Source: Candidatus Heimdallarchaeum aukensis (lineage in GTDB: Archaea; Asgardarchaeota; Heimdallarchaeia; Heimdallarchaeales; Heimdallarchaeaceae). From it: a DNA stretch of 64,000 nt. The notes below the pieces were generated by a model, which had not been told where the DNA came from, searched no databases, and worked only from the letters and a program-made list of their open reading frames with translations. Below are positions 26,026-51,801 of the stretch, piece by piece; the stretch's first letter is position 1, and every line of letters begins with the position of its first letter. The DNA lies in assembly GCA_021513695.1 (NCBI GenBank), contig CP084166.1, forward strand, positions 1,568,001 through 1,632,000. The letters run 5' to 3'. The translations under genes and the position numbers were made by a program.

Positions 26026-26751
26026 TTAGGTGTGTGACAGTCCAGGGAAATAATATTTAGTTCCTTCAGCATAGGAACTATCTACTCTTGCTATACCATT
26101 TTCTTCAAAAAATGATAAGCAACGATTAATTCTTTCCTCTGCCCACCCTGTTCTAAGTAATAGATCTTCTTTTGTTACAAATCCTGTTCTTGAAGCAATG
26201 TTTAATATTACATCATGGTCGGGACTGAATTCAACAGGAGCAAATTCTACTAGTTTCACTCCAGATTCTAAAACTTTGAAAGGTGGAATTAATTTTGAAT
26301 TTATGAGTTTCTCTAATGAACGATACAAGTCATCAATTGTAACTAGTTTTCCAGGTCTAGTTTTATTTAATTGGGTAAACAATTCACCTACAGACATTAT
26401 ACCTCCATTTTCTTCTATAAGTTTTTGACCCAAATCCATGATTTCGTTTGCTAAAACATCATAGAAACCTTTTCCTGTTAATCTATCTTTTAGAGTTGGA
26501 GCTTCTTTCCATTCATATCTCCCTATTTCTGTAGGTAAGCCTAGTTCTTCTCGCAGGCCAGCAAGTTTTTCATAATATTCTTTATTTTCAACTATTTTAT
26601 CACCATATTTCTTTTCAAATTTCTTTAGTTGCTTTTTAACTTGTTTAATATTTTCCAACATTTGTTCTAATTCTTTTATCATTAATTCGGCTTCTTTAAC
26701 TTGGAAAGCTGACTTCACTTTTAATTTCTTTTCAATATCTCTTAAGCCCAA
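26026..26751 (-). CDS. EAP30-domain ESCRT-II subunit (Vps22/Vps36-like)
   Basis: By-eye alignment to SNF8/EAP30: FYDVLANEIMDLGQKLIEENGGIMSVGELFTQL vs [33 protein letters not shown], and DHDVILNIASRTGFVTKEDL...W..ER....L..FEENGIARVD vs DHTVVLQLAEKNGYVTVSEI...W..ER....L..LLKEGLAWLD. An N-terminal coiled coil is present. Confidence 0.8.
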   Translation of the reverse strand: MGLRDIEKKLKVKSAFQVKEAELMIKELEQMLENIKQVKKQLKKFEKKYGDKIVENKEYYEKLAGLREELGLPTEIGRYEWKEAPTLKDRLTGKGFYDVLANEIMDLGQKLIEENGGIMSVGELFTQLNKTRPGKLVTIDDLYRSLEKLINSKLIPPFKVLESGVKLVEFAPVEFSPDHDVILNIASRTGFVTKEDLLLRTGWAEERINRCLSFFEENGIARVDSSYAEGTKYYFPGLSHT

Positions 26752-26823
26752 CTTTAATCACTATTTTTTATTTGTCAGTGAGATATAAAAAATATACTAT
26801 TTAATTTCGCAATTAGCTTAGAG

Positions 26824-27132
26824 TTAAAAAAGGAGAGGAAGTCTTCTAATCCACTCTTTAATTGAATTCATAAGCTTTTTAGATTCATTTGGAGGAAGAA
26901 AAGCTGCTAGTTTGTCTTTATAGTTTTTGTATAGTTTTTGATAAACGCTGTCCATTTCATCAACAATTGAATCATTTACCAAATTGATTTTTTTAACAAG
27001 ATGTTTTATCTCTTCCAACTCTTCTAAGATGTATGAACAGTCAATTTTTATTTCTAAGAGATCCATCAACTCGAATAAACTATCTTTTGCTTTATTATAG
27101 GTATTTTCTAAAGATTTTCTCCTAGAAATCAT
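26824..27132 (-). CDS. Small all-helical protein (102 aa) between the ESCRT-I-like and ESCRT-II genes
   Basis: Heptad-like, charged helical sequence. It has its own SD-like GAGGAG 6 nt upstream of the ATG. No family recognised. Confidence 0.5.
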   Translation of the reverse strand: MISRRKSLENTYNKAKDSLFELMDLLEIKIDCSYILEELEEIKHLVKKINLVNDSIVDEMDSVYQKLYKNYKDKLAAFLPPNESKKLMNSIKEWIRRLPLLF

Positions 27133-27168
27133 GTTTACTCCTCTAAAAAGGCTGGATAAAAGATAGGA

Positions 27169-28638
27169 CTACATATCTTTTAAAATTCGTCTAAATTCGT
27201 TTAACCATCTTGATGCTTGGAATTCTAGTTTTTCACAATCGTCTTCATTTATTATTTCACTTGGTTTATAATTTGAAAGAATGTCTTTCCAGTTTTTCAT
27301 ATCGCTGAGCATCCAATGATCTTGCGGAATAGATGGAAACGAGTGCAAAACATGAATTAGCTCTTCTACGTCAGCCAACAGCAAATCAGCTCGTGCGACT
27401 GATTTAAGCCTTGTTAGATCAATTAATTCAATTGCAGCTGAAACAAAATCAGCTGTTTTTACAGGCATTTTCTTTAAGGATTCAAATGGTATCATTTCAA
27501 CATCTTTAGTTCCAGTTCCTTCAGCCATTTGTAGCAATCTCATTCCTTTGTCAAATCTATTTAGCAGATTTTCTTGCTCTATAAACGAATCGAGATCAAA
27601 TCCACCTAATTGTTCCAGTTTCATTCTTGTTTTGAAAACTGTTCTTATTAGTGATCTTAACTGCTTTTTATATGCAACTTGCTCAATCTCACCATTTTCA
27701 TACCCTCTCGCTAAATTATCTAATGTCACTATTGCTGCATATAAATCAGCTTCAAAATCTAATCTTTTATCTAAATCACTAGGCATTACTTGTCCTCCAA
27801 CATTTTCTAAATAAGCTAATTTTTTATTTGTCTTATAACTTTCCACTGAATATTTTCTATAAAGTTTCAAGTAATCAACACTTGAAAGATCTCCATCATC
27901 AAATTTCTCATTTAATAGCTCTAATAAGTCATTAGATGCTCTTGAACTTGCTTTTAAATCATCGGTTACAGAAATTGTAAGTTCTTTTAATGAATGTGAA
28001 GGCTCAGCTTTCTTGATTAGAGCAGCTCTTTTTTCCTCAATTTGTTTATTTAGTTCGTTTATCTGCTGCTGATACGCTTCTATCTCTGCTTCAATAGTAC
28101 TTTTTTCTATCGATGTTTGACTCCGTTCATTAAAGGATGGTACACTTTGCTTACGTACAGTGTGACGTGAAACTGTTCTTGGTTTCATCGGTTGAACTAC
28201 AGATCTAGACACACTCCTAGCTGTAGACATATGCTTTGTTCTTAATGGTCTTGCAGGAACATTAGCAAATAATCGCCGAATATCATTTATAACTTGATAA
28301 ATATGATAGCGTGGTTTCCATTGAGCGAGTATTTGCAAACTAAGAAAGTCATTGTCGTCAACATTAGGATGATTTACTTTAGGAGTAATTTCAACTTGAG
28401 GAGGAATTCTTGGGAACTCTGGAGAGATATATATTGTAGCATAAACAGTTATCTTCGTTCCTTGAATTATCCCTACAGGGCCTTTCCACTTTCTTAAATT
28501 GCCTCCTACTGGCTCAAATCCTTCAACATTATTATAAATTAATTGCATCTCATTAGCAAGAATCTGATCTAGAGAAATTTGTCTCACCTTTACTCTTCTA
28601 TTATTGTTATAAACTTCAAAGTTTAAAAAATATTGCAT
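27169..28638 (-). CDS. ESCRT-I-like fusion: UEV/E2-variant domain + coiled-coil stalk + Vps28-like domains
   Basis: Residues ~45-125 have a UBC fold (KWKGPV..GT...V...I....FP..PP.V.....V.HPNV) with Ser100 where E2s carry the catalytic Cys (DFLSLQIL vs GSICLDIL). A coiled coil spans ~170-205. The C-terminal ~200 aa align by eye to Vps28 (DLYAAIVTLDNLARGYENGEI...Y vs ELYSLIITLDHLEKAYLKD.I...Y, plus a C-terminal helical bundle). Confidence 0.75.
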   Translation of the reverse strand: MQYFLNFEVYNNNRRVKVRQISLDQILANEMQLIYNNVEGFEPVGGNLRKWKGPVGIIQGTKITVYATIYISPEFPRIPPQVEITPKVNHPNVDDNDFLSLQILAQWKPRYHIYQVINDIRRLFANVPARPLRTKHMSTARSVSRSVVQPMKPRTVSRHTVRKQSVPSFNERSQTSIEKSTIEAEIEAYQQQINELNKQIEEKRAALIKKAEPSHSLKELTISVTDDLKASSRASNDLLELLNEKFDDGDLSSVDYLKLYRKYSVESYKTNKKLAYLENVGGQVMPSDLDKRLDFEADLYAAIVTLDNLARGYENGEIEQVAYKKQLRSLIRTVFKTRMKLEQLGGFDLDSFIEQENLLNRFDKGMRLLQMAEGTGTKDVEMIPFESLKKMPVKTADFVSAAIELIDLTRLKSVARADLLLADVEELIHVLHSFPSIPQDHWMLSDMKNWKDILSNYKPSEIINEDDCEKLEFQASRWLNEFRRILKDM

Positions 28639-28729
28639 TCAAAAAAAAGAGTCTTTTCTTGAGAAAAAAATATATGAAAAAAAATTGATTATAATTCTAA
28701 ATTACAATAGAACCTAGGAATAAACTCTT

Positions 28730-29272
28730 TTACTTTCTATTTTTGACTAAAAGTGTAGCTAGTTTCACAAATGCTTCTTGAACATGTTCTCCTGTAAGTG
28801 CACTTGTTTTTATGAAATCCAAACTATTGATTTTGTTTTGTAATGATTTACATTCATCATCTGATACAGCAATTTTATCTTCTAAATCATTTTTATTTCC
28901 AACTAAGATGGTAAGGGTGTTCTTTCCACAGTTTTTAACAAGTTCAGAGTTCCATTTCTCTAGATCAGTTAGTGTTGAATTCCTGGTTAAATCGAAAACC
29001 ATCAGTGCTGCTTTTGCTCCTTTAAAGAAAGTATGTCTTATAAACCTAAATCTATCTTGTCCTGCTAGATCCCAAATTGAAAGAGCTACAACTGTATTGT
29101 CCTCTAATGTAACAAATTTCTCACTCGGTTCCATACCTATTGTCATCAGATAACTTTGTTCAAAACGATTATGAACAAAACGTTGTACAAGAGATGTCTT
29201 TCCTACAGCGGCGGCACCTAATAGAAGTATTTTGAAATTGAAATCAGGACGAATTGAACGCATTATTCTCAA
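28730..29272 (-). CDS. Rab/Ras-like small GTPase
   Basis: G1 GAAAVGKTS, G3 WDLAGQD, G4 GNKND and G5 TSAL. By eye it aligns end to end with Rab-type GTPases. There is no C-terminal Cys prenylation motif. The likely start is the ATG at 29263 (MRSIRPDF...). Confidence 0.9.
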   Translation of the reverse strand: MRIMRSIRPDFNFKILLLGAAAVGKTSLVQRFVHNRFEQSYLMTIGMEPSEKFVTLEDNTVVALSIWDLAGQDRFRFIRHTFFKGAKAALMVFDLTRNSTLTDLEKWNSELVKNCGKNTLTILVGNKNDLEDKIAVSDDECKSLQNKINSLDFIKTSALTGEHVQEAFVKLATLLVKNRK

Positions 29273-33173: not shown

Positions 33174-34628
33174 CTACTGGGGCTGCAACCAATGGCTGAG
33201 CCCTCGGCAAACAGTGAAATGAGTGAGACTGAATTTCTGACCAGTGAGGTAATCAGTAATGGTGTTACATCGAGGACGGAAAAGATATCCAAGGAACTTA
33301 CGAGCGATATTCATTCCCCTTGTTAGATCAGAATGAAAAGTGTAGTTACAGGAAGAACAATGAACTAACCCTCTAACGGGACGGGAAACTTTCCTCCCGC
33401 AACGAGCACAGTGAGAAGATGTCCCTCTTTCCTCTATTGTTAATATTCGGTGAGATTCAAAGCCTCGAAGTATAAGTGCCCGACGGAGAAGAGAGAGAAC
33501 AAGAGAAAAATTCCACTGATGAAGTTTTCTGCGAAACTTACGATTACTTTTTTCTTTTTCTTTTCCTTCTCGAACATGTTTGGGGTAACCTACAACAACG
33601 AAAAGGTCATACACTTGTGCATAACTCTCTATCGTCTGCACAACATCGCTTATAAATTGGTGAATATACGCGCGTTTAACGTTTCTATACCTCCGACGAA
33701 GAAGACCAAGAAAACGGTAAACTTGGTGCTTTTTACCTAACTGGTCGTTTAAAGCTGCTTTCCTCTGAAGACGGGAAAGTTTGAGTTTATATCTATGATT
33801 GATTCTATTCCACTGTTTAGTATACCAGAATTTTATCTCTTTTTTTGTTAACTTCTTTTTAGGAGTCAGTAACACTCCTGCAGCAGGAATGTTTATCCCT
33901 AGATCTATTCCCAGCACAGCTGGGGGAAGAGAAGAAGAATTATCTCCTTGACTTGTGAGATAAAAGGAAGAAGGAGGAAGAACTTTTAATTGGAAATACA
34001 CCCACCATTCACGTGTAGAACGTTTGTATCTTAGTTCTAGACTTTTCACCCTCCCTTTCTTTAACTCTTTCTGGTGAAAATCGCTCATCTCTAAAGGTAA
34101 CCACAACTTCTGATGATAAGGTGTCTTTCTCTTCCAGGTATCTAACGAGTCTCTTATTCCTACCCACCAACGAGTAAGTGTATTATTCTTCTCTTTTGGT
34201 AGATGGACAAGAATGAACCTTTTTCCATTAATTAATTGCCTTCTTGCTCTCTTTATTGGAGGACGAGTAGGACGGGGTCTATACCCTTGTTCATATAATT
34301 GTACAGCTATATCTCTACACTCTTGGAATTCATTGTGAGAACAATAGGGAAACATTTTCTTCAAGTCGTGAGGAACAGTCTTTCTCCTCTCTTCTTCTTT
34401 TACTCTTGAAGTAGTCAGTGTCAACTCGTCTAATTTTCCTCTATGTACTCTTATTTTCCCTTTTTTTGTTCTTATACTTATTTTTCTTCTGTTGTGGTGT
34501 ATAATTCTCACATATTTTTCTATTATTCTCGTGTCTCTCCCCGTTATTCTCCTTAATCTTTCCTTTTTTCTCGTCGTCAATACCTCATTCTTTATTCTCA
34601 CTTTTAATGTTTTGACGACGTCCTCCAT
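33174..34628 (-). CDS. tnpB: TnpB-like RNA-guided endonuclease family protein (OrfB, RuvC + zinc ribbon)
   Basis: 484 aa. RuvC-I is LGIDLGINIP. The zinc ribbon is CARCGRKVSRPVRGLVHCSSCNYTFHSD. RuvC-III is HSDLTRGMNIA. The N-terminal KTLKVRIKN... is typical of TnpB. Confidence 0.9.
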   Translation of the reverse strand: MEDVVKTLKVRIKNEVLTTRKKERLRRITGRDTRIIEKYVRIIHHNRRKISIRTKKGKIRVHRGKLDELTLTTSRVKEEERRKTVPHDLKKMFPYCSHNEFQECRDIAVQLYEQGYRPRPTRPPIKRARRQLINGKRFILVHLPKEKNNTLTRWWVGIRDSLDTWKRKTPYHQKLWLPLEMSDFHQKELKKGRVKSLELRYKRSTREWWVYFQLKVLPPSSFYLTSQGDNSSSLPPAVLGIDLGINIPAAGVLLTPKKKLTKKEIKFWYTKQWNRINHRYKLKLSRLQRKAALNDQLGKKHQVYRFLGLLRRRYRNVKRAYIHQFISDVVQTIESYAQVYDLFVVVGYPKHVREGKEKEKSNRKFRRKLHQWNFSLVLSLLRRALILRGFESHRILTIEERGTSSHCARCGRKVSRPVRGLVHCSSCNYTFHSDLTRGMNIARKFLGYLFRPRCNTITDYLTGQKFSLTHFTVCRGLSHWLQPQ

Positions 34629-39866: not shown

Positions 39867-40247
39867 ATGTCAATAAGTTTACCACCAGAAAAGAAAAAAG
39901 AATTAATTAAAATATTAAAACAAATTTCACAAGGTTGTGAATTGGAAGCTTTAGCAGTTGTAACAGATGAGGGAATTAAAGTAGCTTTTTTTGCCGAGAA
40001 AAGTGCAGACCCTGATTTACTCAGCGCTGTAAGCTCGGCTGTTCTTTCCACCGGAGAGATGGTTACAAAACAGCTTTCTCACGGTTTTTTGGAACAAGTT
40101 TTAATCCGCGGTGCTAAAGGATTTACTATCTTATCTAATTTAGATCACTATCTTTTAATTGGAGCTTCTAAGGATTTACACAGCGTTGGTTTAGCTATAC
40201 AAGTAATAAGAAGGCATAGCCCCACAATTGCAGAATTGTTAAACTAA
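39867..40247 (+). CDS. Roadblock/LC7/MglB-family protein
   Basis: 126 aa. ALAVVTDEGIKVAFF...AVLSTGEMVTKQLSHGFLEQVLIRGAKGFTILSNLDHYLLIGASKD follows the Roadblock/LC7 alpha-beta-alpha pattern. Confidence 0.8.
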   Translation: MSISLPPEKKKELIKILKQISQGCELEALAVVTDEGIKVAFFAEKSADPDLLSAVSSAVLSTGEMVTKQLSHGFLEQVLIRGAKGFTILSNLDHYLLIGASKDLHSVGLAIQVIRRHSPTIAELLN

Positions 40248-40289: not shown

Positions 40290-41291
40290 TTAATAAAAGA
40301 GGAAACTCTTCTCTATTTCCTCTTGGCTAAAGCCAGCATTAATTCCAACAATTATTCTAATAAGATCAGAGATTTCTGCGTATTTCATTTCAAAAAAGGC
40401 AATCAATATTTTAAGATCAGTTGAAGATTTTTGACGAAATATTTTTTTCCATTTTTTGATTTGGAAACGCTCAACAGCAAATTCTATATCATGTAGAGGA
40501 ATATCATCTTTTCCCATGTAGTCAGCGAAGATTCTTTTGTATATTCCAAAATTGTACATGCTTAGGACTTCAGGAATGGAATTTGATTCTAATGCTTTTG
40601 CAATAAATGTTGTTGGTTTAATATAACGATAGGGAGCAATCCCAAGATTAATACATCTACACACCCAAATTATGTTCTTTAAGTTAACGTAGACATCAAA
40701 CTCACGAGAAATTACAGGGAGAATATAATATTCAAATTGATCTATTGCTGCGTCAACTGGTACAAAACGTCCTGTTTTCTGAAATTCAGAATAGCCTTGT
40801 TCTAATAATTGTTTGAAAGTCTGAATTTTTTCTGACTTAATGATATCAGCAATTGATGAGGAGGAAGAAAGAACTTTTTCATAATATTCATAACTGTATC
40901 TTCCAACTGGAGAAATTCTTTCTATTATTTCTTCATGAGGTTGCTTCATAAACAGTCCACGAAGAATATATCGGATATTCTCTGCATGAAATCGTTGGGA
41001 ATGAAGATCAATTATCTTTTTTGCTCTACTTGATCCCTGTTTATAAAAAGTGCTCACAGTTTGAGCAAAATGGTTCTTTAATTGTTTTGCAACTTCTGGC
41101 ATCTCTGTAACAAAATTAATATCTTGAACAATTGGACCATATTGCGTTTGCCGAAAAGCAGCTTGTAGTTCTTTAAGATTAGAAGAGGATAGAAGAAAAT
41201 TTATCTGACTTCGACTAAGTACTTTGCCTATTATTCCATGAGCTCTTCCATATAAATATCCATCTCCTGAGAACATTTCATTCACCAGCAA
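40290..41291 (-). CDS. atpC: A/V-type ATPase subunit C (eukaryotic V0-d / AC39 family)
   Basis: 333 aa helical protein. YLYGRAHGIIGKVLSRSQINFLL at the N-terminus, AENIRYILRG in the middle, and EISDLIRIIVGINAGFSQEEI near the C-terminus fit the triple-repeat AC39 pattern. It overlaps atpI by 14 nt. Confidence 0.75.
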   Translation of the reverse strand: MLVNEMFSGDGYLYGRAHGIIGKVLSRSQINFLLSSSNLKELQAAFRQTQYGPIVQDINFVTEMPEVAKQLKNHFAQTVSTFYKQGSSRAKKIIDLHSQRFHAENIRYILRGLFMKQPHEEIIERISPVGRYSYEYYEKVLSSSSSIADIIKSEKIQTFKQLLEQGYSEFQKTGRFVPVDAAIDQFEYYILPVISREFDVYVNLKNIIWVCRCINLGIAPYRYIKPTTFIAKALESNSIPEVLSMYNFGIYKRIFADYMGKDDIPLHDIEFAVERFQIKKWKKIFRQKSSTDLKILIAFFEMKYAEISDLIRIIVGINAGFSQEEIEKSFLFY

Positions 41292-44200
41292 TAGTTGTGT
41301 ATTGAATAAATTTGGTTTTCTCTAGTAATGGAGTATATTGGACACCTTCCCCTTTGTAGAACTTGGAGAAAAATTCTACCCAATGCAACCTCAGTGTCTG
41401 TAAGAATGAGAACATTCCTTCAATAGGTACAATCACAACAAGTCCCCAAACAATGCCAACAATCCAATAAATCCAAGAGGTAGCTAAAGCAGAGACGTTA
41501 TGGGTATCAACACCAGCTAAAATATATGGAAGACCACTCAAAATTGCATGGACTAGTAACATAGCTAAGATACGGCTAAAGGATAGTGTGTTAGAGAATA
41601 GAGCAATAAGATGATCTATAGCTTCCATAATCCCCTCTGTTCCTTCATGGAGATATTCGAATAGGAAAACTAGAGGAATTGAAACTAAGGCAATAATTGT
41701 AAATATTGTAGAATAGGGTTTTGGAATACTAGGAAGTGCATTTCCACCGATAAGTCGTGAAGTAGCACCAGCACCCATTAAATTATACAATACTGCAAAA
41801 AGTCCTACGTAAAAAATGGAAAGTATAATTGGAGAAATCCATGAAGCTACACCGTGACCGTATTTTTTGTTTTGTATAAATCTTAACCAGATCCCAAGTT
41901 GTATAATTACAAAACCAATAGAAATGGAAAACAATAAGAACAATGGTACTTCTTTTGTAGGCTCAATCAAAGGCAACCATTCAATATGCAAAACGTTTTC
42001 ATAAATATCAGGTAGAAATACTTCATCACCTAGAAGTGCTCCAAATAGGAAACCAAAGATAATTGAAGAAAAACCAGAAAGAGCAAGTAACTCAGAACCT
42101 TTATACAGAAATCCAGACATTGATTCATCAGGTTCAATATTCTTTTTGTTTTTCTTATAAGTTAGAAACAATCCAATCAAGAAGAGAAGTATTCCATGTC
42201 CCACATCAGCGAACATTATACCAAATATCAAGGGAAAAGTAAATTGTATAATTTTGAAGGGGTCTACTTCATGAGTTGAAGGGATACCCATTCCATCAAC
42301 TATTCCTCGAAAAACTTTAGTAACCTTATTCCCATGTTTTGTCATTGAAGGATTCGTTAATGGTACTTTTTGTTTTTCAGACATAGTTATTGGAAAATCC
42401 AATTTTTCGGTTTCTTTCTTTAAGTCTTCAACCCTATCTTTAGGAACCCAACCCCAAATTGTTGTAGTGGTTTCATCAGTTTTACATTTTTCTTCTGTTT
42501 CCAACCTTTTAATTTCTGTTTCTATTAACTCTTCTAGTGCGAAGATTTTGTCTTCTACTTTCTCCCTAATTTCATCCAATTCATGTTCTTTATGTTCTAT
42601 TTCAGTTTGAAGATTCGTGAGCTGACTTTCAATAGATTCTGAAGATATCATGCTATAGTCAATAGATAACAGCTCAAAGGAATATTCTTCTAGAACTTGT
42701 TGTATAGACTTCTTATAATCTATTAGAGACAATATGTAGACAAAGACTGTGTCACTTTTTTCTGGTTGCTCAACCTCAATGAAAATTAATTGCCCATCAG
42801 AAACTTCATTTAGGAAAAACTTTACAGCCTTAACATTCTTTTTTGGGATATTCCCCAAAAAGGTACAAGTTTCAAAATCTGGATCATCCAAGTATGGTTT
42901 AACATCAGAGCTTAAATAGGAATAAATAGGGATATATGCTTCTAATTCTGTTTTCTTCGCTTTTAATTCTTTAAGTTCGGAACTAAGATTTTCTATTTTT
43001 TCTCCATAATCTGCAATAAATTGCTCAACAAAAGATATAGCTTCATCATAGTTATCTTTTACAGCAATCTTAGAATCAGATATTGCTGGAGGAATAGATA
43101 ATCCAAGGGCTTGTTTGTATCTGCTAATTTTGGAAGATAGTAAAGTAAAATTCTGTCTTTTTTGTTTTATGTCGTTTAAAATATCTTCTGACTGTCTTCC
43201 TATCTTTTCTTGATGAAGGATACCAGTGTTATGAATAAAGGAGATTAACTTACGTGTGTGCTCCTTTGGGACTTCCATTTTAACAAACTCTACATCCTTC
43301 GGAAATAAAGCTCCTCCCTTACTGTCACCTAAATGATGATAAGGAGGAATTTCTTTTTCAATTGTTTTTTCTTCTTTCAAAGTCAAAGAACCACGATCCT
43401 TGGAAATTTTTTTAGATTTTTTATATTTCAGAGGAACATCCCTCAATTGAGTGAGTTTAACAGGAAAAGGAAGCTCTTTGAGTTCCTTTTCGAGATTAAG
43501 ATAATCATTAGGTTTAATCCAACCCCAAAGGGTGAAATTAGTTTGAGTTGTTCGACCCTGTTCTAGAATATCAAATAACTCAAGCATGAGATTAATAAAA
43601 GTGAGAAAATGCAAAAGAGTTTCACGATGTTCATCACGCAATTCTGAAATTTGAGATAAAATTTCATCGTGCTTTTCGTGCAGAAAATCATGTACATTAG
43701 CTACTGTAAGCTTGCTAGTTTCTTCATCACTGAACATATCGGCAAAAACAGACAGTTCAAAATCTATTGAAGAAAAATAGAAATTTTCTAGAATAGTCAA
43801 AACTTCATCTTGATATTCCTGGGGGGTGAGAATAAAAACCAAACGAAAATCAGGGTTAGATGATTCAATACTCCAGAAGTAATAAAGACCTTTAGTTATC
43901 TCATCAATATAAAAGGAGATAACTTTCTTATACGAATGATGGATTTCTCCAACGATAGAAAAGGTGGAAGGCCCAGAAGAAAGTAAATCTAAAGGGATAT
44001 CACCAGTCTCAAACTTATGCCGAAAATAATGAAGTTTGTCGGCAATTAGATGCTTCTTTGTTAAAGAATGATTTTCTTCAAAAAGAGAGATAAGAGAAGT
44101 TTCATGTGTATCTAAGAAAGATTTTAGTTCGGAAAGAAATCTAGAAGCATCAAAAACATCAGAGTAGTTTTTTTCTGAATATGAATAAACATCAGAAAGA

Positions 44201-44406
44201 TCTAGACCTAGTTCTTGTGATATGGTAGTAAAACGCTTTAACAAATCAGAAAAAAGCTGGCGATTATCTTCAATTTTAGCCAATTCTGAAGGAGATTGAG
44301 TATCAATTTGAACAAAATCAAAACAATCTAAATAATGTAATTTGGATACAAGAGGAAGGGAGTCGGAGGGTGACACCTGAACCTTTGAAAGTACTCTTTT
44401 TGCCAT
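41278..44406 (-). CDS. atpI: A/V-type ATPase subunit I (a-subunit), unusually long, with duplicated N-terminal cytoplasmic domain
   Basis: The C-terminal ~330 aa form the membrane domain (EVDPFKIIQFTFPLIFGIMFADVGHG ... SFSRILAMLLVHA ... LRLHWVEFFSKFY). Two successive N-terminal-domain-like units each end in a GW-x-P/K motif (FTLWGWIKPNDY..., TTIWGWVPKDRV...). Confidence 0.85.
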   Translation of the reverse strand: MAKRVLSKVQVSPSDSLPLVSKLHYLDCFDFVQIDTQSPSELAKIEDNRQLFSDLLKRFTTISQELGLDLSDVYSYSEKNYSDVFDASRFLSELKSFLDTHETSLISLFEENHSLTKKHLIADKLHYFRHKFETGDIPLDLLSSGPSTFSIVGEIHHSYKKVISFYIDEITKGLYYFWSIESSNPDFRLVFILTPQEYQDEVLTILENFYFSSIDFELSVFADMFSDEETSKLTVANVHDFLHEKHDEILSQISELRDEHRETLLHFLTFINLMLELFDILEQGRTTQTNFTLWGWIKPNDYLNLEKELKELPFPVKLTQLRDVPLKYKKSKKISKDRGSLTLKEEKTIEKEIPPYHHLGDSKGGALFPKDVEFVKMEVPKEHTRKLISFIHNTGILHQEKIGRQSEDILNDIKQKRQNFTLLSSKISRYKQALGLSIPPAISDSKIAVKDNYDEAISFVEQFIADYGEKIENLSSELKELKAKKTELEAYIPIYSYLSSDVKPYLDDPDFETCTFLGNIPKKNVKAVKFFLNEVSDGQLIFIEVEQPEKSDTVFVYILSLIDYKKSIQQVLEEYSFELLSIDYSMISSESIESQLTNLQTEIEHKEHELDEIREKVEDKIFALEELIETEIKRLETEEKCKTDETTTTIWGWVPKDRVEDLKKETEKLDFPITMSEKQKVPLTNPSMTKHGNKVTKVFRGIVDGMGIPSTHEVDPFKIIQFTFPLIFGIMFADVGHGILLFLIGLFLTYKKNKKNIEPDESMSGFLYKGSELLALSGFSSIIFGFLFGALLGDEVFLPDIYENVLHIEWLPLIEPTKEVPLFLLFSISIGFVIIQLGIWLRFIQNKKYGHGVASWISPIILSIFYVGLFAVLYNLMGAGATSRLIGGNALPSIPKPYSTIFTIIALVSIPLVFLFEYLHEGTEGIMEAIDHLIALFSNTLSFSRILAMLLVHAILSGLPYILAGVDTHNVSALATSWIYWIVGIVWGLVVIVPIEGMFSFLQTLRLHWVEFFSKFYKGEGVQYTPLLEKTKFIQYTTIAGE

Positions 44407-44854
44407 TAATTTCTCACCAGAATAGTAAGCAAGAACAATTTTAAAATCTTCCTACTGAACATAAGACAAAAAAAATAGTGAGCTTGTTACTAAAAAATAT
44501 GAGAAAATATTGGAGAAGAAACAAGAAAGAGAAGAATGAACTACAAAAACAAAGAAGAGAGTTAAAAAATTAAAAAAGAGATTTGAAAAAAGAATTGTTT
44601 GGTTTAAAAACCAGTGAAATTTTTCAATTTTATTCGAGAATAATTATTTTCAAATGGAAAAACAGTAAAAAAGAGAAACAATAACAGATATGCAAATAAT
44701 CAAAAAACAAAAGATGGAAGAAGGATTCATTTAAAAAGAATGACCTAAGAATAACAAAAAGTTTAATAACTTTCTAAAGGTAACTAAGGTCAGTAACCAA
44801 ATAGGTTAGATTTGTAAAAACAAGTCGAAAAAAATTTGAAAAAAACCAAACAAT

Positions 44855-44860
44855 AGGTGA
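44855..44860 (+). promoter_or_regulatory. Shine-Dalgarno-like AGGTGA upstream of the actin gene
   Basis: AGGTGA lies 7 nt before the ATG at 44868. Confidence 0.5.
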
Positions 44861-44867
44861 AAAATTT

Positions 44868-46004
44868 ATGGAAGAAATAGTATCTGATAAACCGTTGGTA
44901 ATAGACAACGGAACAGGATTCACAAAAAATGGATTCGCAGGAGAAGATCAACCAAGAAGTGTGTTCCCAACGCTAATAGGTTATCCAAAATACCAAATAA
45001 TAATGACTGATGTTGAACATTACGTAAGAGAATACTATATAGGAGAAGAAGCACTAAACTTGAGAGGAGTGCTCAAACTAGTATACCCAATAGAACATGG
45101 TCAAATAGGTGACTGGGACGCCATGGAAAGAATCTGGCATTACACCTTCTATAACGACCTTAGAGTTAATCCTAACGAGCATCCTATTTTGCTCACCGAA
45201 CCTCCTCTTAACAAGAATGTCAACAAGGAAAAGATGGCCGAATTAATGTTTGATACCTTTAATGTTCCTGCTATGTATATTAGCATGCAAGCTATTCTTT
45301 CGCTTTATGCTTCTGGTCGTACTACAGGTATTGTAGTCGACAGTGGTGATGGTGTTACACACATCGTTCCTGTTTACGAAGGTTTTGCAATTAGTCATGC
45401 TATTCGCAGAGCTGATATTGGTGGTCGTGATATTACTGACTATCTACGTCGTCTATTAAGACAAAGAGGATATTCCTTAACCAGCAGTGCAGAACGAGAA
45501 ATTGTTCGTGACATTAAGGAACGTCTTTGTTACGTAGCTTTAGATCCTGAAAAAGAACTCAAACTTGCTGAGAAAGTTTCTGGTATGGAAAAGACTTACA
45601 CCTTGCCAGATGGTGAAACTCTAAGCATTGGCGCTGAGCGCTTTATGGCTCCTGAATTGTTCTTCAATCCTGGTGCCATCGGTTCTGAAGAACTTCCTTT
45701 GGATGAACAGATCTATCAAGCTATCACTGATTGTGATGTCGATCTTCGTAGAGATCTTTATTCCAACATTGTTCTTTCTGGTGGATCCACCATGTTCCCA
45801 GGTTTGAAGGAGAGATTACACAAGGAACTTACTGAACTAGTCCCCGAAACTATGGAGGTTAAGATTATCGCTCCACCAGAACGTCGTTACAGTGTTTGGA
45901 TAGGAGGAAGCATCCTCAGTAGTCTTAAGACCTTTACCAAACTTTGGGTGACTAAGAAAGAGTATAAAGAAACTGGTCCTACCGCAGTTTATCGTTGTAT
46001 CTAA
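44868..46004 (+). CDS. Eukaryote-like actin (Asgard 'lokiactin' type)
   Basis: [28 protein letters not shown] vs eukaryotic [94 protein letters not shown] is nearly identical to actin. The C-terminus [12 protein letters not shown]...W..K.EY.E.GP..V.R.C also matches. Confidence 0.95.
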
Positions 46005-46185
46005 TTTAACTTGATTGAAATTTATTTAATTCAATCTTTTTTCTTCATTTTTGTGTTTTTCTGTTTTTCTTTTTTCCTATTGGTAAAGTCTTTTCTTCAA
46101 TATTCTCAAATTTTTTTCATTAATTTTTATCGGGTTGAGAAAACTTTATTTTATTCTTTGAGTATACATTCTTTTAGGGGGTATA

Positions 46186-47124
46186 TTGTTGGACGTCAAT
46201 TTACTCAGATCTTATTTATCTGAGCCTAACTATCGCGCTGTTTTATCGGAGATTATACATTCCCATCGTAGCCGTTCTATTGACGAACTTTCTTCTCTTT
46301 TTCCTTCTTTAACTAGTAACTACTCTTTAACTAAAATTTTGAAGAAGTTTGTAGATATAGGTATTATTAAAAGCAAGAAAATTTCCCTTGGTTCTCAAGA
46401 GCGTGAATTTTATTTTCCCAATCGGGAACTTTTACGAAGTAATTTTTATCAAGATTTGCTTTTAGAATATGAAGATCTAAATTATCCAGCCAAACTAGAT
46501 CTGGAATTTACTTATCTTTGGGAAGATTGGCCTCAGTGCCTTGTTGATAATGGTTCTTTAACCCTGTATATTGTCACCAGTACTTATTTACCTGAAAATG
46601 TAGATATTTCACACCTAACAAAGCTTCTTACTGTTTGGGCTTTAAAATATGCAAAACTATCTATTGAAAACATTCATATTTCTAATATTGTTGATATTAA
46701 AGCAACACCAGTTAAAACTAATAATCTAATAGTTATTGGTTCTGGAGAAGTCAACAAGGTTACTGCCGATATTTTATCTCTTTATGGTGACTCTTTACCT
46801 ATTCGTTTTCAATCTAAATCAATATATAGTTCCTTGACTTCCAAAAATTATTCTTCTACAAAAGGTTCTATTGTAGGTTTACTTCCAAATCCCTGGAATC
46901 CTAGCAAAATTGCTTTAATCTGTTCTAGTATGAGTTATTTTGGAACTAATATTTCACTTAAAGCTTTAATTGATGATCTTGATTCAATTATCCATCAAGA
47001 ACCCAGAATTTTATCTAATCACTCTGTTTATTCTGAAATCCCCATTCGTGTTCTTGCATCAGAAGAAAACAACAAGAATAAAGAAAAACTTGAAGGACTG
47101 AAATCTTACACTTTCAAAGAATGA
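46186..47124 (+). CDS. Hypothetical protein with probable N-terminal winged-helix domain, downstream of actin
   Basis: 312 aa with a TTG start. The N-terminal ~80 aa (YRAVLSEIIHSHRSRSIDELSSLF...LTKILKKFVDIGIIKSKK) are wHTH-like. The remainder was not recognised. Confidence 0.5.
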   Translation: MLDVNLLRSYLSEPNYRAVLSEIIHSHRSRSIDELSSLFPSLTSNYSLTKILKKFVDIGIIKSKKISLGSQEREFYFPNRELLRSNFYQDLLLEYEDLNYPAKLDLEFTYLWEDWPQCLVDNGSLTLYIVTSTYLPENVDISHLTKLLTVWALKYAKLSIENIHISNIVDIKATPVKTNNLIVIGSGEVNKVTADILSLYGDSLPIRFQSKSIYSSLTSKNYSSTKGSIVGLLPNPWNPSKIALICSSMSYFGTNISLKALIDDLDSIIHQEPRILSNHSVYSEIPIRVLASEENNKNKEKLEGLKSYTFKE

Positions 47125-47269
47125 CTTCTATGATACTGTTCAAATATACCCCCCTTTTTTTACTATTTCTGCTTTCTTCTTCATATTTTAATTTTCTATT
47201 AAATAATGTAAATCTTAAAGAGGGTTTATAAAAAAAGAGAAACTGAAGTTAACATTTTTAGTTATTTGT

Positions 47270-48058
47270 TCATTTTCCTACATTAACTTCCAGCTTTGGT
47301 AGTTCACCTATTTTCAGTGAAACTATATCCCCCAAATTTATTTTTCCTACTCCCTCAGGTGTTCCTGTTGCAATAATATCTCCTGGCTCTAAAGTCATCA
47401 CTTCTGAGACATATTCTATCATTCTTTCTGGTGGAAAAATCATTTTCTTCGTGTTACTATTTTGTTTTAATTCTCCGTTTACAAATGTTTGAATACTTAA
47501 GTTTTTTACTCGAGTAGTCAAGTCTATCCACGGGCCTAAAGGTCCAAAGGTGTCGAACCCTTTCGCTCTTGTCCACAATCTATCTTTTTTCTGTAAATCT
47601 CTAGCAGTTATATCCAAAAAACCAGTCCAAGCATAATAATCTTCTGGCCATTGTGCTATATCTTCTGCTTTTTCACCTCTTATTTTTCTTCTTATTACTA
47701 GAGCTAGCTCCCCTTCAAAATCCACATGGTTTGACAAAGAAGGATAAATTATTCTTCCCTTGTGAGGAAGTAGAGAACTTGGAGGTTTTAAAAAGATTAT
47801 TGGCTCTTCTGGTACTTCATTACCCAATTCTTTTGCGTGTTCACTATAATTTCTTCCTACACAAACAATTTTTGTTGGAGTTATTGGAATATCAATTTTT
47901 ACCTTTTCTATCTCAATGCCTATTGGATCAAGGTCTATCTCTTCGTGATTTTTTAAGACTTCCTCAATAGGAGATAATATTTCATACACTTTTTCCTCTT
48001 TTTGATCAAATAGCACGTTAAATTTTCTATTTTTATAAATGACCTTTCCTATTAACAA
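47270..48058 (-). CDS. Fumarylacetoacetate hydrolase (FAH) family protein
   Basis: CVGRNYSEHAKELGNEVPEEPIIFLKPPSSL, VDFEGELALVI, and TGTPEGVG near the C-terminus. These are typical FAH / 2-keto-4-pentenoate hydratase family motifs. Confidence 0.85.
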   Translation of the reverse strand: MLIGKVIYKNRKFNVLFDQKEEKVYEILSPIEEVLKNHEEIDLDPIGIEIEKVKIDIPITPTKIVCVGRNYSEHAKELGNEVPEEPIIFLKPPSSLLPHKGRIIYPSLSNHVDFEGELALVIRRKIRGEKAEDIAQWPEDYYAWTGFLDITARDLQKKDRLWTRAKGFDTFGPLGPWIDLTTRVKNLSIQTFVNGELKQNSNTKKMIFPPERMIEYVSEVMTLEPGDIIATGTPEGVGKINLGDIVSLKIGELPKLEVNVGK

Positions 48059-48079
48059 AATAATCCCTTTTTTACTTTT

Positions 48080-49636
48080 TCATTTTTTATGTTTTGTTTT
48101 CTCTTTATTTTTTGTTTTAAATAATTCAAACTTTTCTGGTCGTAATAACATATAAGTTAGCATTCCAATTACTATCATTAATGCTGCAATATAAAAGGTT
48201 ACTCTGTATGAATAAGCATCAGAATTTCCCCCTGAACTTATCCAGTTAGCTATTTTTTGTGAGAACAGAAAGGCAACAATTACAGAAAACACAAAAGAGA
48301 TACTAAAGGATGACATCTGAATACCTTTTGTTTTATTTAACTTGAAATAAGAAATAAAGAATGTAGCTAACCACATACATACGCTTACAATGAAGAATCC
48401 AACATATATTGAAAGAGTCACTAGATTTACGTCAACTATGCTATCTGCAACTGGGCCAGTTATTAATGTCCCCCCTAATCCCCATGACAAATAAAAAGCG
48501 GCATTATAGTAGCCCATCATTTTCCCTCTTATTTCAAGTGGGATAATCTTCGTTATCATTGAATAAGAGATAGTCTGTATCCACACCCTAGATAATCCTA
48601 AAAGAGCCATATAAACAAAGATAAGTACAATAGACGGTGCAAAAGGTAGAATTAATGTTCCAATAAACAAAAAACTAAATCCAACTAACAATAGTGTATG
48701 ATCACTGAAATGTTTAGTTAAAAAACCAACAAGTAATCCACCAATTATTATTGCAATACTACTTGTATTTCTTAATTGAGCAACAATTACATCTGAAGCA
48801 GCAAAAGTTGACGGTAATCTTATGTAAATACTTACCATTTGATTAATGCTATTTCCTCCAATATTTACAATTCCAAGAACTACTAAAATCCACACAAATA
48901 ATTGCCATTCCCAACGTATTTTTTGAGGATTCTCGACAGTGTTATTTTTTCCTTTATTCTCCATACCCTCTTCATTTTTATTCAAAATCGCGTTGTTAAT
49001 TGGCACTACACCACTATCTTCCAGTTCAGCATAAGATTCAGGTATAAGGAACAAGGCTATAATACTGAAAACCATTATTCCTGAAGAAATAAAAAACAGA
49101 TTTCCATTGGAAAATCCCTCTCCACCTAAGTATAAAAATCCACTCGCTGTAACGCCCAATATATTTCCTATTCCTCCAATAAATTGGAGTCTACCCATTA
49201 TTTTTCCTCTTTCAGTTTCTTTTGTTAGATCTGCAATTAATGCAGTCCACCCTAGGTTACTACTACTCCATCCAGCTTCTATTATTGTGAAACCTATGAT
49301 TATTGTATAAGCTGCTGCATGAAGACTCTTGTTTATGGCCATGTTCTTGTGAATGAAATAAACTACAATATAGCCCACAGCGGCGTATAATTCTCCAAAA
49401 ATAATTAATAATCTCCTTTTTTGGAATTTGTCAGAGATTCTCCCCCAAACTGCTGATTGAGTTAAAATGTTAGCAACCATTGGCAATGTTGCATAAAGTG
49501 TCATTTCTGTGTTACTTACACCCAGATTCTCTTTCAAATATATACTTAGAAAAAAATAGAAGATTCCTCTCCTAAACATAGCCATTATCTGAAATATAGA
49601 CAAGCTTACAAAATGCTTATTTCTCAAAGGTTTCAC
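48080..49636 (-). CDS. Major facilitator superfamily transporter
   Basis: 518 aa with about 12-14 hydrophobic segments in two halves separated by a hydrophilic loop. The MFS-like GRISDKFQKRR motif sits after TM2. Confidence 0.8.
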   Translation of the reverse strand: MKPLRNKHFVSLSIFQIMAMFRRGIFYFFLSIYLKENLGVSNTEMTLYATLPMVANILTQSAVWGRISDKFQKRRLLIIFGELYAAVGYIVVYFIHKNMAINKSLHAAAYTIIIGFTIIEAGWSSSNLGWTALIADLTKETERGKIMGRLQFIGGIGNILGVTASGFLYLGGEGFSNGNLFFISSGIMVFSIIALFLIPESYAELEDSGVVPINNAILNKNEEGMENKGKNNTVENPQKIRWEWQLFVWILVVLGIVNIGGNSINQMVSIYIRLPSTFAASDVIVAQLRNTSSIAIIIGGLLVGFLTKHFSDHTLLLVGFSFLFIGTLILPFAPSIVLIFVYMALLGLSRVWIQTISYSMITKIIPLEIRGKMMGYYNAAFYLSWGLGGTLITGPVADSIVDVNLVTLSIYVGFFIVSVCMWLATFFISYFKLNKTKGIQMSSFSISFVFSVIVAFLFSQKIANWISSGGNSDAYSYRVTFYIAALMIVIGMLTYMLLRPEKFELFKTKNKEKTKHKK

Positions 49637-49875
49637 TCCAAGGAATAATTTACTTTTCGTCGTTTTGCTTTTTTTTGTAACGAATAAATAGTTTGTGTTT
49701 TGCCTATTTTTGTAATAAAAAAATTAAGTTAAAGTAAACTTTTTTATATCGGTGCAATTTTCCTCTTTTGAGGACAATGAATCCTGGTGAATATGAAACA
49801 ATACAGTAAAATGCTTTCTTTTGGTTTAGTAGTTTATCTTTGTCCTCTTGGGAAAAAATGTTTTAAGGTGGAAAG

Positions 49876-51801
49876 ATGGTAGAAGTAAAAGTAAAATTAC
49901 CTGATAACAACGAGATTACCATTGAAAAGGGTAAAACAGTATTGGATTTAGCCAATAAAATAAGCCCTAATTTAGCAAAAGCATCTTTAGCAGCAAAAGT
50001 AGATGATAAATTAGTGGATCTTACTTACCCAATTGAACAAGATTGCAAAGTAGAATTAATTACAGCCAGATCAGATGAAGCTTTTCATATTCTAAATCAC
50101 AGTGCGGCTCACGTATTAGCTAGTGCTGTCGTCGAATTGTTTCCTGAAGCGAAGCCAACTATTGGACCCTCTGTTGATGAGGGATTTTATTACGATTTCG
50201 AGGTAAAAAAGCCCTTTTCTCAAGAGGATTTGGAAAAAATAGAAAAGAAAATGATAGAGATAATAGAAGAAGATACTCCGTTTATTAGAGAAGAAGTTCC
50301 AATTCAAGAAGCCATTAAGTACTATAAAACAGTTGAAAAAAACAAATTCAAAGTAGAAATATTGGAAGAGATGCCAGATGTTGGCACCGTTTCTTTTTAC
50401 TCTCATCGAAACGGTAAATTCAAAGATCTTTGTAGAGGACCACATGTTCCATCAACGAAAAAAATTAAAGCTGTAAAAGTGTTAAACGCTTCTTCTGCAT
50501 TCTGGAGAGGAGATGCAAAAAGAGAATCTCTTCAACGAGTATATGGTATTGCTTTTACTGACGCTAAAAAACTAAAGAAGCACTTGAAAATGCTTGAAGA
50601 AGCAAAGAAACGTGATCATAGAATTTTAGGTCCTCAACTTGACCTATTCGATACTGCAGATGAATGGGGGCCTGGGATGCCATTAATCTATCCTAAAGGC
50701 ACAATCCTTCTAGATACAATCAAAGAGTTTTGGAAAAAAGAACACAAAAAAGCAGGGTATAAGGTTGTTCAAACTCCTCATCTGTTCAAAGAGATAGTTT
50801 GGAAAACGAGTGGGCATCTAGACTACTACATTGAAAACATGTATCCAGTTGACGCTAGAGGTGAACGTTGGTATGTTAAACCTATGAATTGTCCAGGACA
50901 TATGATGATCTTTAATAGAAAAACATATTCCTACAGAGAATTACCTGAAAAAATTGCAGAAATGGGTACTGTATATAGATACGAACTTTCAGGAGTACTT
51001 CATGGTTTATTCAGAATTCGAGGTTTTACCCAAGATGATAGTCACATTTTCATGCTTCCGGAGCAACTAGAAGACGAGATAGTAAAGATTATTGAAATGG
51101 TTAATCATTTTTATAAAGTGTTTGGATTCAAAGAGTGGGAATTTTTCATTAGTACAAGACCAGAGAAGTCTATTGGAACTGACGAAGGCTGGGAACACGC
51201 CACCAAATCTTTAATGAATGCTATAGAAAGAGTTGGAATCAAATACAAGGTTAAGCAAGGAGATGGAGCTTTCTATGGACCAAAGATTGATGTTGATGTT
51301 AAAGATGCAATTGGAAGACGTTGGCAATTAGCAACTATACAAGTAGATTTTAACTTACCTGAGAGATTTGATATAAATTACATAGGAGAAGATGGTCAAA
51401 AACATAGACCATTTGTTATTCACAGAGTCATATACGGTGCCTTAGAACGGTTTTTAGCTATATTAGTCGAGCATTATGCAGGAAAATTGCCAATATGGTT
51501 GAGCCCTGTACAAGCAATTGTTATTCCTATTACTGATGAACATATAGAATATGCAAAAATGGTTGCAACGGCACTTGATAATGAAGGAATTAGAGCAGAA
51601 GCTGATCTTTCTGGAGAGCGAATGGAGTACAAAATAAGACAAGCTACTCTTCAAAAAATACCTTACATTATTAACGTTGGTGGAAAAGAAATAGAGAACA
51701 ACACTATAGCTGTTCGTGATCGAACAAATAAAGTAAGATTTGGCGTTAAGATTGAAGAATTCGTTAAAGAAGTCAAAGAAAAAATAGCAAATTATGAATA
51801 A
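49876..51801 (+). CDS. thrS: Threonyl-tRNA synthetase
   Basis: N-terminal TGS domain (VKVKLPDNNEITIEKGKTVLDLA), the HSAAHVLA second-additional-domain motif, a class II core (FRIRGFTQDDSHIF, GAFYGPKID), and a C-terminal anticodon-binding domain. Confidence 0.95.
   Translation: MVEVKVKLPDNNEITIEKGKTVLDLANKISPNLAKASLAAKVDDKLVDLTYPIEQDCKVELITARSDEAFHILNHSAAHVLASAVVELFPEAKPTIGPSVDEGFYYDFEVKKPFSQEDLEKIEKKMIEIIEEDTPFIREEVPIQEAIKYYKTVEKNKFKVEILEEMPDVGTVSFYSHRNGKFKDLCRGPHVPSTKKIKAVKVLNASSAFWRGDAKRESLQRVYGIAFTDAKKLKKHLKMLEEAKKRDHRILGPQLDLFDTADEWGPGMPLIYPKGTILLDTIKEFWKKEHKKAGYKVVQTPHLFKEIVWKTSGHLDYYIENMYPVDARGERWYVKPMNCPGHMMIFNRKTYSYRELPEKIAEMGTVYRYELSGVLHGLFRIRGFTQDDSHIFMLPEQLEDEIVKIIEMVNHFYKVFGFKEWEFFISTRPEKSIGTDEGWEHATKSLMNAIERVGIKYKVKQGDGAFYGPKIDVDVKDAIGRRWQLATIQVDFNLPERFDINYIGEDGQKHRPFVIHRVIYGALERFLAILVEHYAGKLPIWLSPVQAIVIPITDEHIEYAKMVATALDNEGIRAEADLSGERMEYKIRQATLQKIPYIINVGGKEIENNTIAVRDRTNKVRFGVKIEEFVKEVKEKIANYE

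Follow-up and report, generated by a model that had tools for sequence, protein, structure and literature searches.

The actin gene of this Candidatus Heimdallarchaeum aukensis locus is followed on the same strand by a 312-aa open reading frame, which raises the question of whether the product of this second gene has anything to do with actin. In the window, by which we mean the whole stretch of 64,000 nucleotides analysed here, the actin gene (44868..46004, plus strand, 378 aa) is separated from the divergent atpI gene (41278..44406, minus strand) by an intergenic spacer of 461 nt (44407..44867), and the 312-aa ORF (46186..47124, plus strand, TTG start) begins 181 nt downstream of actin. The earlier note had described this layout and its coordinates correctly and had suggested that the downstream gene could encode an actin-linked factor or a regulator. 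We propose, with a probability of roughly 0.78, that the locus consists of three independent transcription units, whose proximity is an accident of genome history, and that the 312-aa gene codes for a separate regulator rather than for a partner of actin.

The identity of the actin itself is clear from profile and sequence comparisons. The protein matches the Pfam family PF00022 over its full length (residues 8-376), scoring 441.4 bits where the cut-off is 27, and shows 60% identity and 80% similarity to human beta-actin (ACTB). Together with the presence of the 47-letter peptide that had been quoted, this bears out its description as a eukaryote-like actin. Its best solved relative in a PDB sequence search is 9wc4, 'HC1 actin' (658 bits), eukaryotic actins reach approximately 535 bits, and the crenactin and MreB models score far below threshold, which identifies the protein as a lokiactin orthologue. 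Orthologues with 74-99% identity are found at 80 Asgard genome loci, with one gene per genome across the Asgard classes, and the actin of Ca. Heimdallarchaeum endolithica PR6 is 99% identical. This agrees with the reported occurrence of lokiactin across Asgard lineages (PMC9834061). Judged by its sequence, the protein is thus an ordinary and already known lokiactin orthologue, whose genome lineage has been published, and nothing of note sets it apart from the Lokiactin of 'Ca. Lokiarchaeum ossiferum' and others (9wc4). A stretch of 13 letters matches the Lokiactin peptide that was used to raise antibody ab2, and relatives of the protein are known to polymerise in an ATP-dependent manner into F-actin-like filaments (PMC9834061). 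The locus is therefore of little consequence for actin biology, as it contains a known lokiactin orthologue and a suggested partner that is refuted by synteny (see below).

The second of the proposed units, the lokiactin gene, would be expressed from a BRE/TATA-like core promoter approximately 100 nt upstream of the coding region. We predict this element at 44757..44769 on the plus strand, 99-111 nt 5' of the ATG, where the sequence AAAAGTTTAATAA coincides with the one block that has invariant columns when the regions upstream of actin from 20 Heimdallarchaeota loci are compared. It also fits the motif AAA[AC]NTTTA[AT], and 10 of the 24 matches to this motif in the window lie at most 150 nt upstream of a start codon on the same strand. 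The position of the predicted promoter implies that transcription would start about 75 nt before the coding region, giving the actin mRNA a leader of this length. A Shine-Dalgarno-like AGGTGA (44856..44861, plus strand) is located 7 nt 5' of the ATG, and GGTGA or GTGAT is found at the same place in relatives. Just past the stop codon, five T5-T6 runs (46037..46075, plus strand) form a predicted archaeal intrinsic terminator region; a density of at least five runs of T5 or longer per 100 nt is reached on the plus strand here and at just two other places of the 64 kb, and T-tracts follow the actin stop codon in every relative checked, regardless of the next gene. From these signals, the lokiactin gene is probably monocistronic. 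A scan for sigma-70 promoters and hairpin terminators gave no excess over shuffle expectation, this type of scan being unsuited to archaea. Both the consensus AAA[AC]NTTTA[AT] and the predicted actin leader could guide the mapping of transcription start sites in Heimdallarchaeia. We also noticed a small palindrome, AAAGTT-TAAT-AACTTT, around the TATA-like element of actin.

What kind of protein, then, does the 312-aa gene encode? The protein has no Pfam match of its own, and only a weak match to Lrs14 was obtained (E 0.074); it passes the threshold neither of HTH_5/HTH_20 and the NCBIfam ArsR models nor of PF05124 and TIGR01564. The assignment consequently relies on relatives that serve as intermediates, on a structure prediction and on searches with the family profile. 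Among 90 relatives, 50 contain an ArsR HTH (HTH_5/HTH_20), 58 pass PF05124 (S_layer_C) and 39 pass TIGR01564. An AF2 model computed from the 90-sequence alignment has a pLDDT of 89.8 and replaced an earlier run on four sequences (pLDDT 60.9), which was set aside. The family profile matches PH1932 with an E value of 6e-16 and the S-layer anchor structure 9FSA with an E value of 5.9e-11. The N-terminal part (approximately aa 1-95, 46186..46470, plus strand) has the fold of an ArsR-type winged helix-turn-helix, and the wHTH matches of the relatives, the weak Lrs14 match and the structure model uphold the winged helix that had been read from the N-terminal sequence. The C-terminal part (approximately aa 111-312, 46516..47124, plus strand) is an alpha/beta domain homologous to S_layer_C, with the same fold as 9FSA and detectable homology to it. 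A formerly unassignable Heimdallarchaeum protein can thereby be assigned to an archaeal family, widespread and uncharacterised, which combines a winged helix with an S-layer-anchor dimerisation domain.

The earlier suggestion of a regulator holds in so far as the protein probably is one. We propose that it would be a cytosolic, transcription-factor-like protein, in which the ArsR-type winged helix would bind DNA and the S-layer-anchor-like domain would provide dimerisation and possibly ligand sensing. 9FSA, described as the domain through which the S-layer anchor dimerises, forms the two-fold (dimer) axis of this anchor (PMC11410804). In the C-terminal domain, six polar residues (D137, D170, N180, N190, N235 and T254) are near-invariant in the 90 sequences and suggest a putative binding pocket. 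Relatives of the protein resemble regulators of the ArsR/SmtB type (ArsR, 6j05; Pyrococcus Phr, 2p4w; PH1932, 1uly) in that they pass HTH_5/HTH_20, whereas the protein of the window matches none of the ArsR HMMs above threshold. It would moreover dimerise through its large C-terminal alpha/beta domain, whereas ArsR uses helices alpha1 and alpha5. The Methanococcales S-layer anchor (PF05124, TIGR01564, 9FSA) is homologous to the 312-aa family at the family level, but in the anchor this domain is split by the S-layer body, while in the 312-aa protein it is contiguous, cytosolic and fused to a DNA-binding domain. No signal peptide or hydrophobic leader is visible in the 312-aa protein by inspection, its N-terminus being the wHTH. 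Literature searches for PF05124 gave nothing relevant.

One might speculate that the protein is not a conventional transcription factor and that the S-layer-anchor-like domain is its core, acting for instance as a sensor of envelope or glycan precursors, or serving sensing or assembly in a conflict (defence) system, with the wHTH as one of several interchangeable modules at the N-terminus. Such a role would fit the fusion of the same domain to DUF4062, HD-CE, TPR or an XRE-type HTH in other proteins, a relative of the 312-aa gene that overlaps a gene with a NERD nuclease domain, and the near-invariance of the polar residues. We nevertheless consider it unlikely, as the combination with an ArsR wHTH, which is typical of one-component regulators, dominates among the relatives and no defence genes lie beside the 312-aa gene in the window. 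PADLOC matches to Csa3/CasR-type models, which probably stem from the wHTH common to both, were rejected as a sign of defence.

As the third of the proposed units, the regulator gene would be transcribed from its own promoter-like element. A match to AAA[AC]NTTTA[AT] at the distance typical of the genome, AAAACTTTATTTTA (46140..46153, plus strand), lies 33-46 nt 5' of the TTG and is the predicted promoter; it is followed by a Shine-Dalgarno-like GGGGG run (46177..46181, plus strand). In PR6, the 55 nt directly preceding the start codon are identical, whereas the remainder of the gap differs. The T-runs after actin and this separate motif argue for separate transcription of the two genes. As a less likely alternative, the rearrangement described below may have exposed the regulator gene to read-through from actin, a highly expressed gene. 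An operator common to the upstream regions of the 312-aa orthologues was also considered and rejected, as the apparent GAGTAT match in one of them (L003) is coding sequence.

The spacer between atpI and actin had been described as a long, A/G-rich control region without ORFs. Its purine excess is real: at 66.8% purine it ranks in the top 0.36% of all 461-nt windows of the sequence and exceeds all other long intergenic regions of the window, which reach 0.60-0.64. With 52% A, 15% G, 10% C and 24% T (GC 24%), it is A-rich, however, and not A/G-rich. Inside it only ORFs of at most 33 aa are found, in agreement with the earlier note, and at its edge the actin start is overlapped by two ORFs on the antisense strand, 49 and 53 aa long. 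The distal 334 nt differ from those of near-identical strains by 4.8-5.1% mismatches and 26 gap columns, comparable to the 5.9-7.7% at third codon positions of atpI in these strains. The distal spacer is thus, as far as the alignments tell, an A-rich, lineage-specific sequence that diverges like silent sites, with indels. The promoter motif common to orthologues is confined to the last approximately 110 nt, and the notion of a control region spanning the whole spacer finds no support. Strain-level conservation of the proximal part was considered as a sign of constraint and rejected; because the adjoining 5' part of actin is just as identical, this identity points to a mosaic or recombination block.

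It appears improbable to us that the spacer carries a functional element such as a non-coding RNA, a long regulated leader, a small protein or an extended bidirectional control region. Its purine content and folding z-scores of -2.5 (plus strand) and -3.3 (minus strand) would be in line with such an element, and long spacers are common 5' of Asgard actin genes that have a divergent upstream gene. Against this, the purine bias is missing from the orthologous loci with 93% identity (purine 0.51-0.57), Rfam gave no match on 44000-47500 even at E values of up to 1, a repeat search in both spacers yielded nothing but low-complexity A/T matches, and the small ORFs and silent-site-like divergence described above speak in the same direction.

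On the other side of the spacer lies what would be the first unit, a two-gene unit for the membrane sector of an ATPase, which is read away from actin. It comprises atpI (A/V-type ATPase subunit I, 1042 aa; Pfam V_ATPase_I, E 5e-48) and its downstream partner atpC (40290..41291, minus strand), coding for the AC39/d-like subunit C (Pfam vATP-synt_AC39, E 1.8e-32). The NCBIfam subunit I models begin to match AtpI only at about residue 370, and residues 1-370 are 23% identical to residues 371-1042 over 324 aa (E 5e-17), from which we infer that the N-terminal cytosolic domain is tandemly duplicated. Nothing relevant to a duplicated N-domain in Asgard subunit I was found in the literature. A candidate TATA-like element of atpI, ATTTTAAAAT (44438..44447, minus strand), was read from the sequence 32-41 nt 5' of the ATG, a distance that fits the 33-51 nt usual for the promoter motif in the window. 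This assignment is weak, because L005, one of the near-identical loci, carries a 23-nt insertion between the element and the ATG.

The atpC gene travels with atpI beside actin in relatives, and at 18 loci the pair, with the duplicated N-domain in atpI, adjoins the Heimdallarchaeota lokiactin, in one orientation or the other. Downstream of actin, 19-21 species-level Heimdallarchaeota loci have a Prefoldin_2 gene (prefoldin beta), a gene for a 105-aa protein, DHH and ABC genes. It is tempting to see a functional module in actin, its chaperone prefoldin beta and the membrane sector of a specialised ATPase, a module that would be partly broken in the lineage of the window, yet we regard this as very doubtful, and the neighbourhood is more readily explained by synteny inherited within a single clade. 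Promoter-like motifs lie separately between the genes of this neighbourhood.

We return to the arrangement that raised the initial question, the proximity of actin and the 312-aa gene. Apart from the window, the adjacency is seen in just two relatives, the near-identical L005 and PR6 (L006); it is absent from L001, L002, L003 and 78 other actin loci. Upstream of the 58% identical orthologue of the 312-aa protein (L001/L002) we find Dak2 and LeuRS genes and no actin, and upstream of the 41% identical orthologue (L003) a divergent M20 peptidase gene. In assembly JAGXNV01, the orthologue and actin are located on separate contigs (L003 and L021). Orthologues of the 312-aa protein form only three clusters among 5.8 billion proteins, whereas lokiactin occurs across Asgard archaea. 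The conservation of the gene pair in Asgard genomes, which the earlier note had proposed to check, thus does not extend beyond the strain level, and the suggested link to actin falls with it.

That the 312-aa protein is an actin-linked factor, binding actin or regulating its gene and co-expressed with it as a gene pair, is in our view extremely unlikely: its position close downstream of actin in three loci and the palindrome, a putative site for a dimeric factor, are outweighed by the lack of the pair in all other loci examined, the narrow distribution of the protein, its ArsR wHTH and S-layer-anchor-like fold, the terminator-like T-runs and separate promoter motif between the genes, and the lack of conservation of the palindrome in the actin upstream regions of relatives. 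With the Asgard actin regulators (profilin and gelsolin/cofilin-like proteins) the gene has only its position beside actin in this lineage in common, and its product shows no resemblance to them in sequence or fold. Genes for profilin or gelsolin were found in the window neither by Pfam scans of its small ORFs nor by comparing seven of these, all unassigned, with PDB sequences, although divergent Asgard profilins could escape both; here we concur with the earlier note.

The ORF does have constant neighbours. On its other side, FAA hydrolase (minus strand), MFS transporter (minus strand) and ThrRS (plus strand) genes form a block (47270..51801; Pfam matches) that is kept in L001, L002, L003, L005 and PR6, and the 312-aa gene would evolutionarily be part of this block. 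As the FAA hydrolase and MFS genes are convergent with the gene of the regulator, they do not suggest themselves as its targets. A recent rearrangement in the Heimdallarchaeum endolithica lineage probably placed the block after actin, where relatives have prefoldin beta and the other genes. In PR6, the gap between actin and the ORF is 648 nt long, differs in sequence and carries a leftover piece of the 3' end of actin in inverted orientation, which marks a rearrangement junction.

The actin gene of the window (44868-46004, plus strand, 378 aa) is separated by a 461-nt spacer from the divergent atpI (41278-44406, minus strand, start codon end at 44406), coding for the 1042-aa ATPase subunit I, and is followed after a 181-nt gap by the 312-aa ORF, which has a TTG start (46186-47124, plus strand). 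This ORF map reproduced the coordinates, spacer length and actin peptide of the earlier note; the suggestion made there that the 312-aa gene might be actin-linked was not borne out. A search of 5.8 billion proteins gave just three orthologue clusters of the 312-aa protein, with 98%, 58% and 41% identity, all from Heimdallarchaeota. Outside the window, the gene has actin ahead of it just in the 98% twin (locus L005) and, as seen by tblastn, in Candidatus Heimdallarchaeum endolithica PR6 (L006). The 58% orthologue (L001, L002) has LeuRS and Dak2 upstream and the 41% orthologue (L003) a divergent M20 peptidase, and in assembly JAGXNV01 the latter orthologue and actin (L021) lie on separate contigs. 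As adjacency is confined to near-identical relatives and the other orthologues have different upstream genes, the two genes are not syntenic in more distant relatives. What is kept in every orthologous locus is the far side of the 312-aa gene, with a convergent FAA hydrolase, an MFS transporter and ThrRS, and distant relatives of the protein are found in genomic contexts without actin.

Actin neighbourhoods were defined by clustering ORFs across all 80 actin loci. In 19-21 species-level Heimdallarchaeota genomes (L007-L030), whose actin is 93% identical, the next gene on the actin strand is prefoldin beta (PF01920, E 2e-19; for example L019 7305-7661), which is absent from the window; after it come a 105-aa gene, a DHH/DHHA1 phosphoesterase and ECF-type ABC genes. 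Upstream of actin, atpI-atpC is kept in 18 loci, in either orientation. Since relatives carry prefoldin beta and the subsequent genes after actin, and the 312-aa gene has other upstream genes elsewhere, the gene orders indicate that a rearrangement breakpoint lies directly 3' of actin in the window lineage, which has lost the downstream part of this neighbourhood. The gap between actin and the 312-aa gene in PR6 supports this, as it is 648 nt long, mostly unrelated to the window gap and holds, about 100 nt past the actin stop, a 60-nt inverted, degenerate remnant of the actin 3' end (L006 7222-7280 versus 7065-7120, 80% identical) that looks like a rearrangement scar. The window and PR6 share just the final ~130 nt ahead of the 312-aa gene, of which the last 55 nt are identical. 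More interesting than the actin/312-aa finding itself are the conserved neighbourhood of atpI-atpC, actin and prefoldin beta in relatives and the duplicated N-terminal domain of atpI. The length of atpI results from a tandem duplication of its cytosolic N-terminal domain, residues 1-370 being 23% identical to the following domain (E 5e-17), and the atpI of relatives has the same duplicated form (~1060 aa). The ATPase genes of this genome are scattered: atpI-atpC is located away from all others, and a lone c-subunit gene (18329-18730, minus strand; Pfam match to residues 72-131 of 133) lies far from it, beside an unassigned 128-aa gene (17923-18309, minus strand). A Roadblock/LC7 gene (39867-40247, plus strand) is located between ProRS and atpC, and in several relatives (L018, L020, L024) ProRS and Roadblock likewise occur as a pair close to actin.

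The window actin is lokiactin, already known and universally conserved in Asgard archaea, and its description as eukaryote-like was right. It matches Pfam Actin with 441 bits, eukaryotic actins with ~535 bits and its best solved relative, the 'HC1 actin' structure 9wc4, with 658 bits; with human beta-actin it shares 60% identity and 80% similarity. A scan with one genome per species placed orthologues, 69-99% identical, at 80 Asgard loci, the closest (99%) being that of PR6 (CP084167.1), one of the genomes that Wu et al. 2022 circularised (PMC8813620). A 13-residue stretch corresponds to the peptide of Lokiactin against which antibody ab2 was raised (PMC9834061). Divergence between the window gene and that of PR6 (L006 6001-7137) is mosaic: the 3' third has ~20% DNA mismatches, with the protein still 99% identical, and third positions differ by 23% overall, whereas the first ~180 nt and the proximal spacer hardly differ at all. 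This pattern suggests intragenic recombination. Other Heimdallarchaeota MAGs (L028, L029, L032-L039) carry a second actin paralogue, 83-85% identical, that the window lacks. This paralogue is preceded, 26-79 nt ahead, by a K/E-rich protein of ~300 aa with a weak AT-hook match, with which it may form a genuine actin-linked pair (for example L028 4252-5199 and 5226-6359), and is followed by a DUF389 membrane protein.

Archaeal promoters consist of a BRE and a TATA box ~25 nt before the transcription start. When 20 Heimdallarchaeota actin upstream regions were aligned, the sole block with invariant columns was CT.A.A.TA.CA.AA..TTTAAT.A., which corresponds in the window to the candidate BRE/TATA block AAAAGTTTAATAA (44757-44769, plus strand, 99-111 nt before the ATG). 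Together with this spacing, the block places the predicted actin start near 44790, giving a leader of ~75 nt that would end in an AGGTGA Shine-Dalgarno site. In its generalised form, AAA[AC]NTTTA[AT], the motif has 24 matches in the window, of which 14 are intergenic, although non-coding DNA makes up only 16%, and 10 lie at most 150 nt (typically 33-51 nt) upstream of a same-strand start; one match, at 46140, lies 46 nt before the 312-aa start. Oligo-T tracts are an established intrinsic termination signal in archaea, and five T5-T6 runs (46037-46075) directly follow the actin stop, a density matched at just three places in the 64 kb, this one included. T-tracts follow the actin stop in every relative checked, regardless of the next gene. 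The T-run cluster and the separate motif favour a predicted monocistronic actin and independent transcription of the 312-aa gene, with some read-through possible. In the 93% identity group (L007-L034), a conserved element, GCTTATAAAAGCTACGATAGTG, precedes the BRE/TATA block by ~40 nt and actin by ~130 nt (columns ~23-45 of alignment A5); the window, PR6, L023, L077 and L083 lack it.

The atpI/actin spacer had been viewed as a long, A/G-rich control region without ORFs. It is indeed purine-rich (66.8%; top 0.36% of 461-nt windows in this sequence) and the most purine-rich long intergenic region in the window, others reaching up to 0.60-0.64, but the bias comes from A (52%; G 15%, C 10%, T 24%), and the ORFs inside are all at most 33 aa long. 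The strong bias is restricted to the H. endolithica lineage, with the 93% orthologous loci at 0.51-0.57, and the distal 334 nt differ from PR6 and L005 by 4.8-5.1% mismatches plus 26 gap columns, compared with 5.9-7.7% mismatches at atpI third codon positions, so that a long control region is not supported. Across strains, the proximal 127 nt hardly differ, which we rejected as proof of constraint because the adjacent ~180 nt of actin are equally similar and both belong to a mosaic block. An Rfam search of the region gave no match, a repeat search of the spacer gave low-complexity matches only, and folding z-scores were mild (-2.5 and -3.3). The best reading is that the spacer would comprise two ordinary promoters at its ends with A-rich filler in between.

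The 312-aa protein itself fell below threshold in every curated HMM tried. A profile built from four orthologues retrieved 155 relatives in an exhaustive search, a few of them as full-length matches (P0007, P0009 and P0011; E 1e-40 to 1e-28) and the majority only at profile positions ~170-270. Of the 90 relatives that were aligned, 58 matched Pfam S_layer_C (PF05124), 39 the S-layer protein model TIGR01564 and 50 ArsR-type HTH_5/HTH_20 models, in agreement with the N-terminal winged helix recognised previously. With this alignment, AlphaFold2 gave a confident model (pLDDT 89.8, pTM 0.74), and the family profile matched the winged-helix protein PH1932 (E 6e-16) and the S-layer anchor domain 9fsa (E 5.9e-11), described as dimerising the anchor (PMC11410804). 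Judged by modelled fold and profile homology, the protein is a divergent representative of the wHTH plus S_layer_C architecture, which is widespread but uncharacterised. Based on this homology and the dimerising role of 9FSA, we read it as a putative dimeric, cytosolic one-component regulator, in which the wHTH would bind DNA and the S-layer-anchor-like domain would provide dimerisation. Nearly invariant polar residues suggest that this domain probably holds a ligand pocket. The same domain is joined elsewhere to DUF4062, HD-CE, TPR or XRE-HTH modules (P0016, P0025, P0034, P0047), which leaves some room for a less likely, non-classical sensor role. For the one-component regulator, the conserved FAA hydrolase and MFS genes are candidate targets, though convergent with the 312-aa gene. 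The family C-terminus is conserved as F/L-x-E, and the gene of one relative (L089) overlaps a NERD nuclease-domain gene. The 312-aa protein belongs neither to the profilins nor to the gelsolins. In line with the earlier note, which had seen no such gene in the window, searches of small ORFs, a subset of the window ORFs, gave no profilin or gelsolin.

Elsewhere, the window encodes a ubiquitin/ESCRT-type cluster (25010-29272) with an E1-like ThiF, a Vps22/36-like EAP30 protein, a 489-aa UQ_con/UEV-Vps23-Vps28 fusion and a Ras-family small GTPase, as well as a 484-aa TnpB/Cas12f-like gene (33174-34628, minus strand) and a second copy seemingly split into three ORFs (21708-23161, minus strand).
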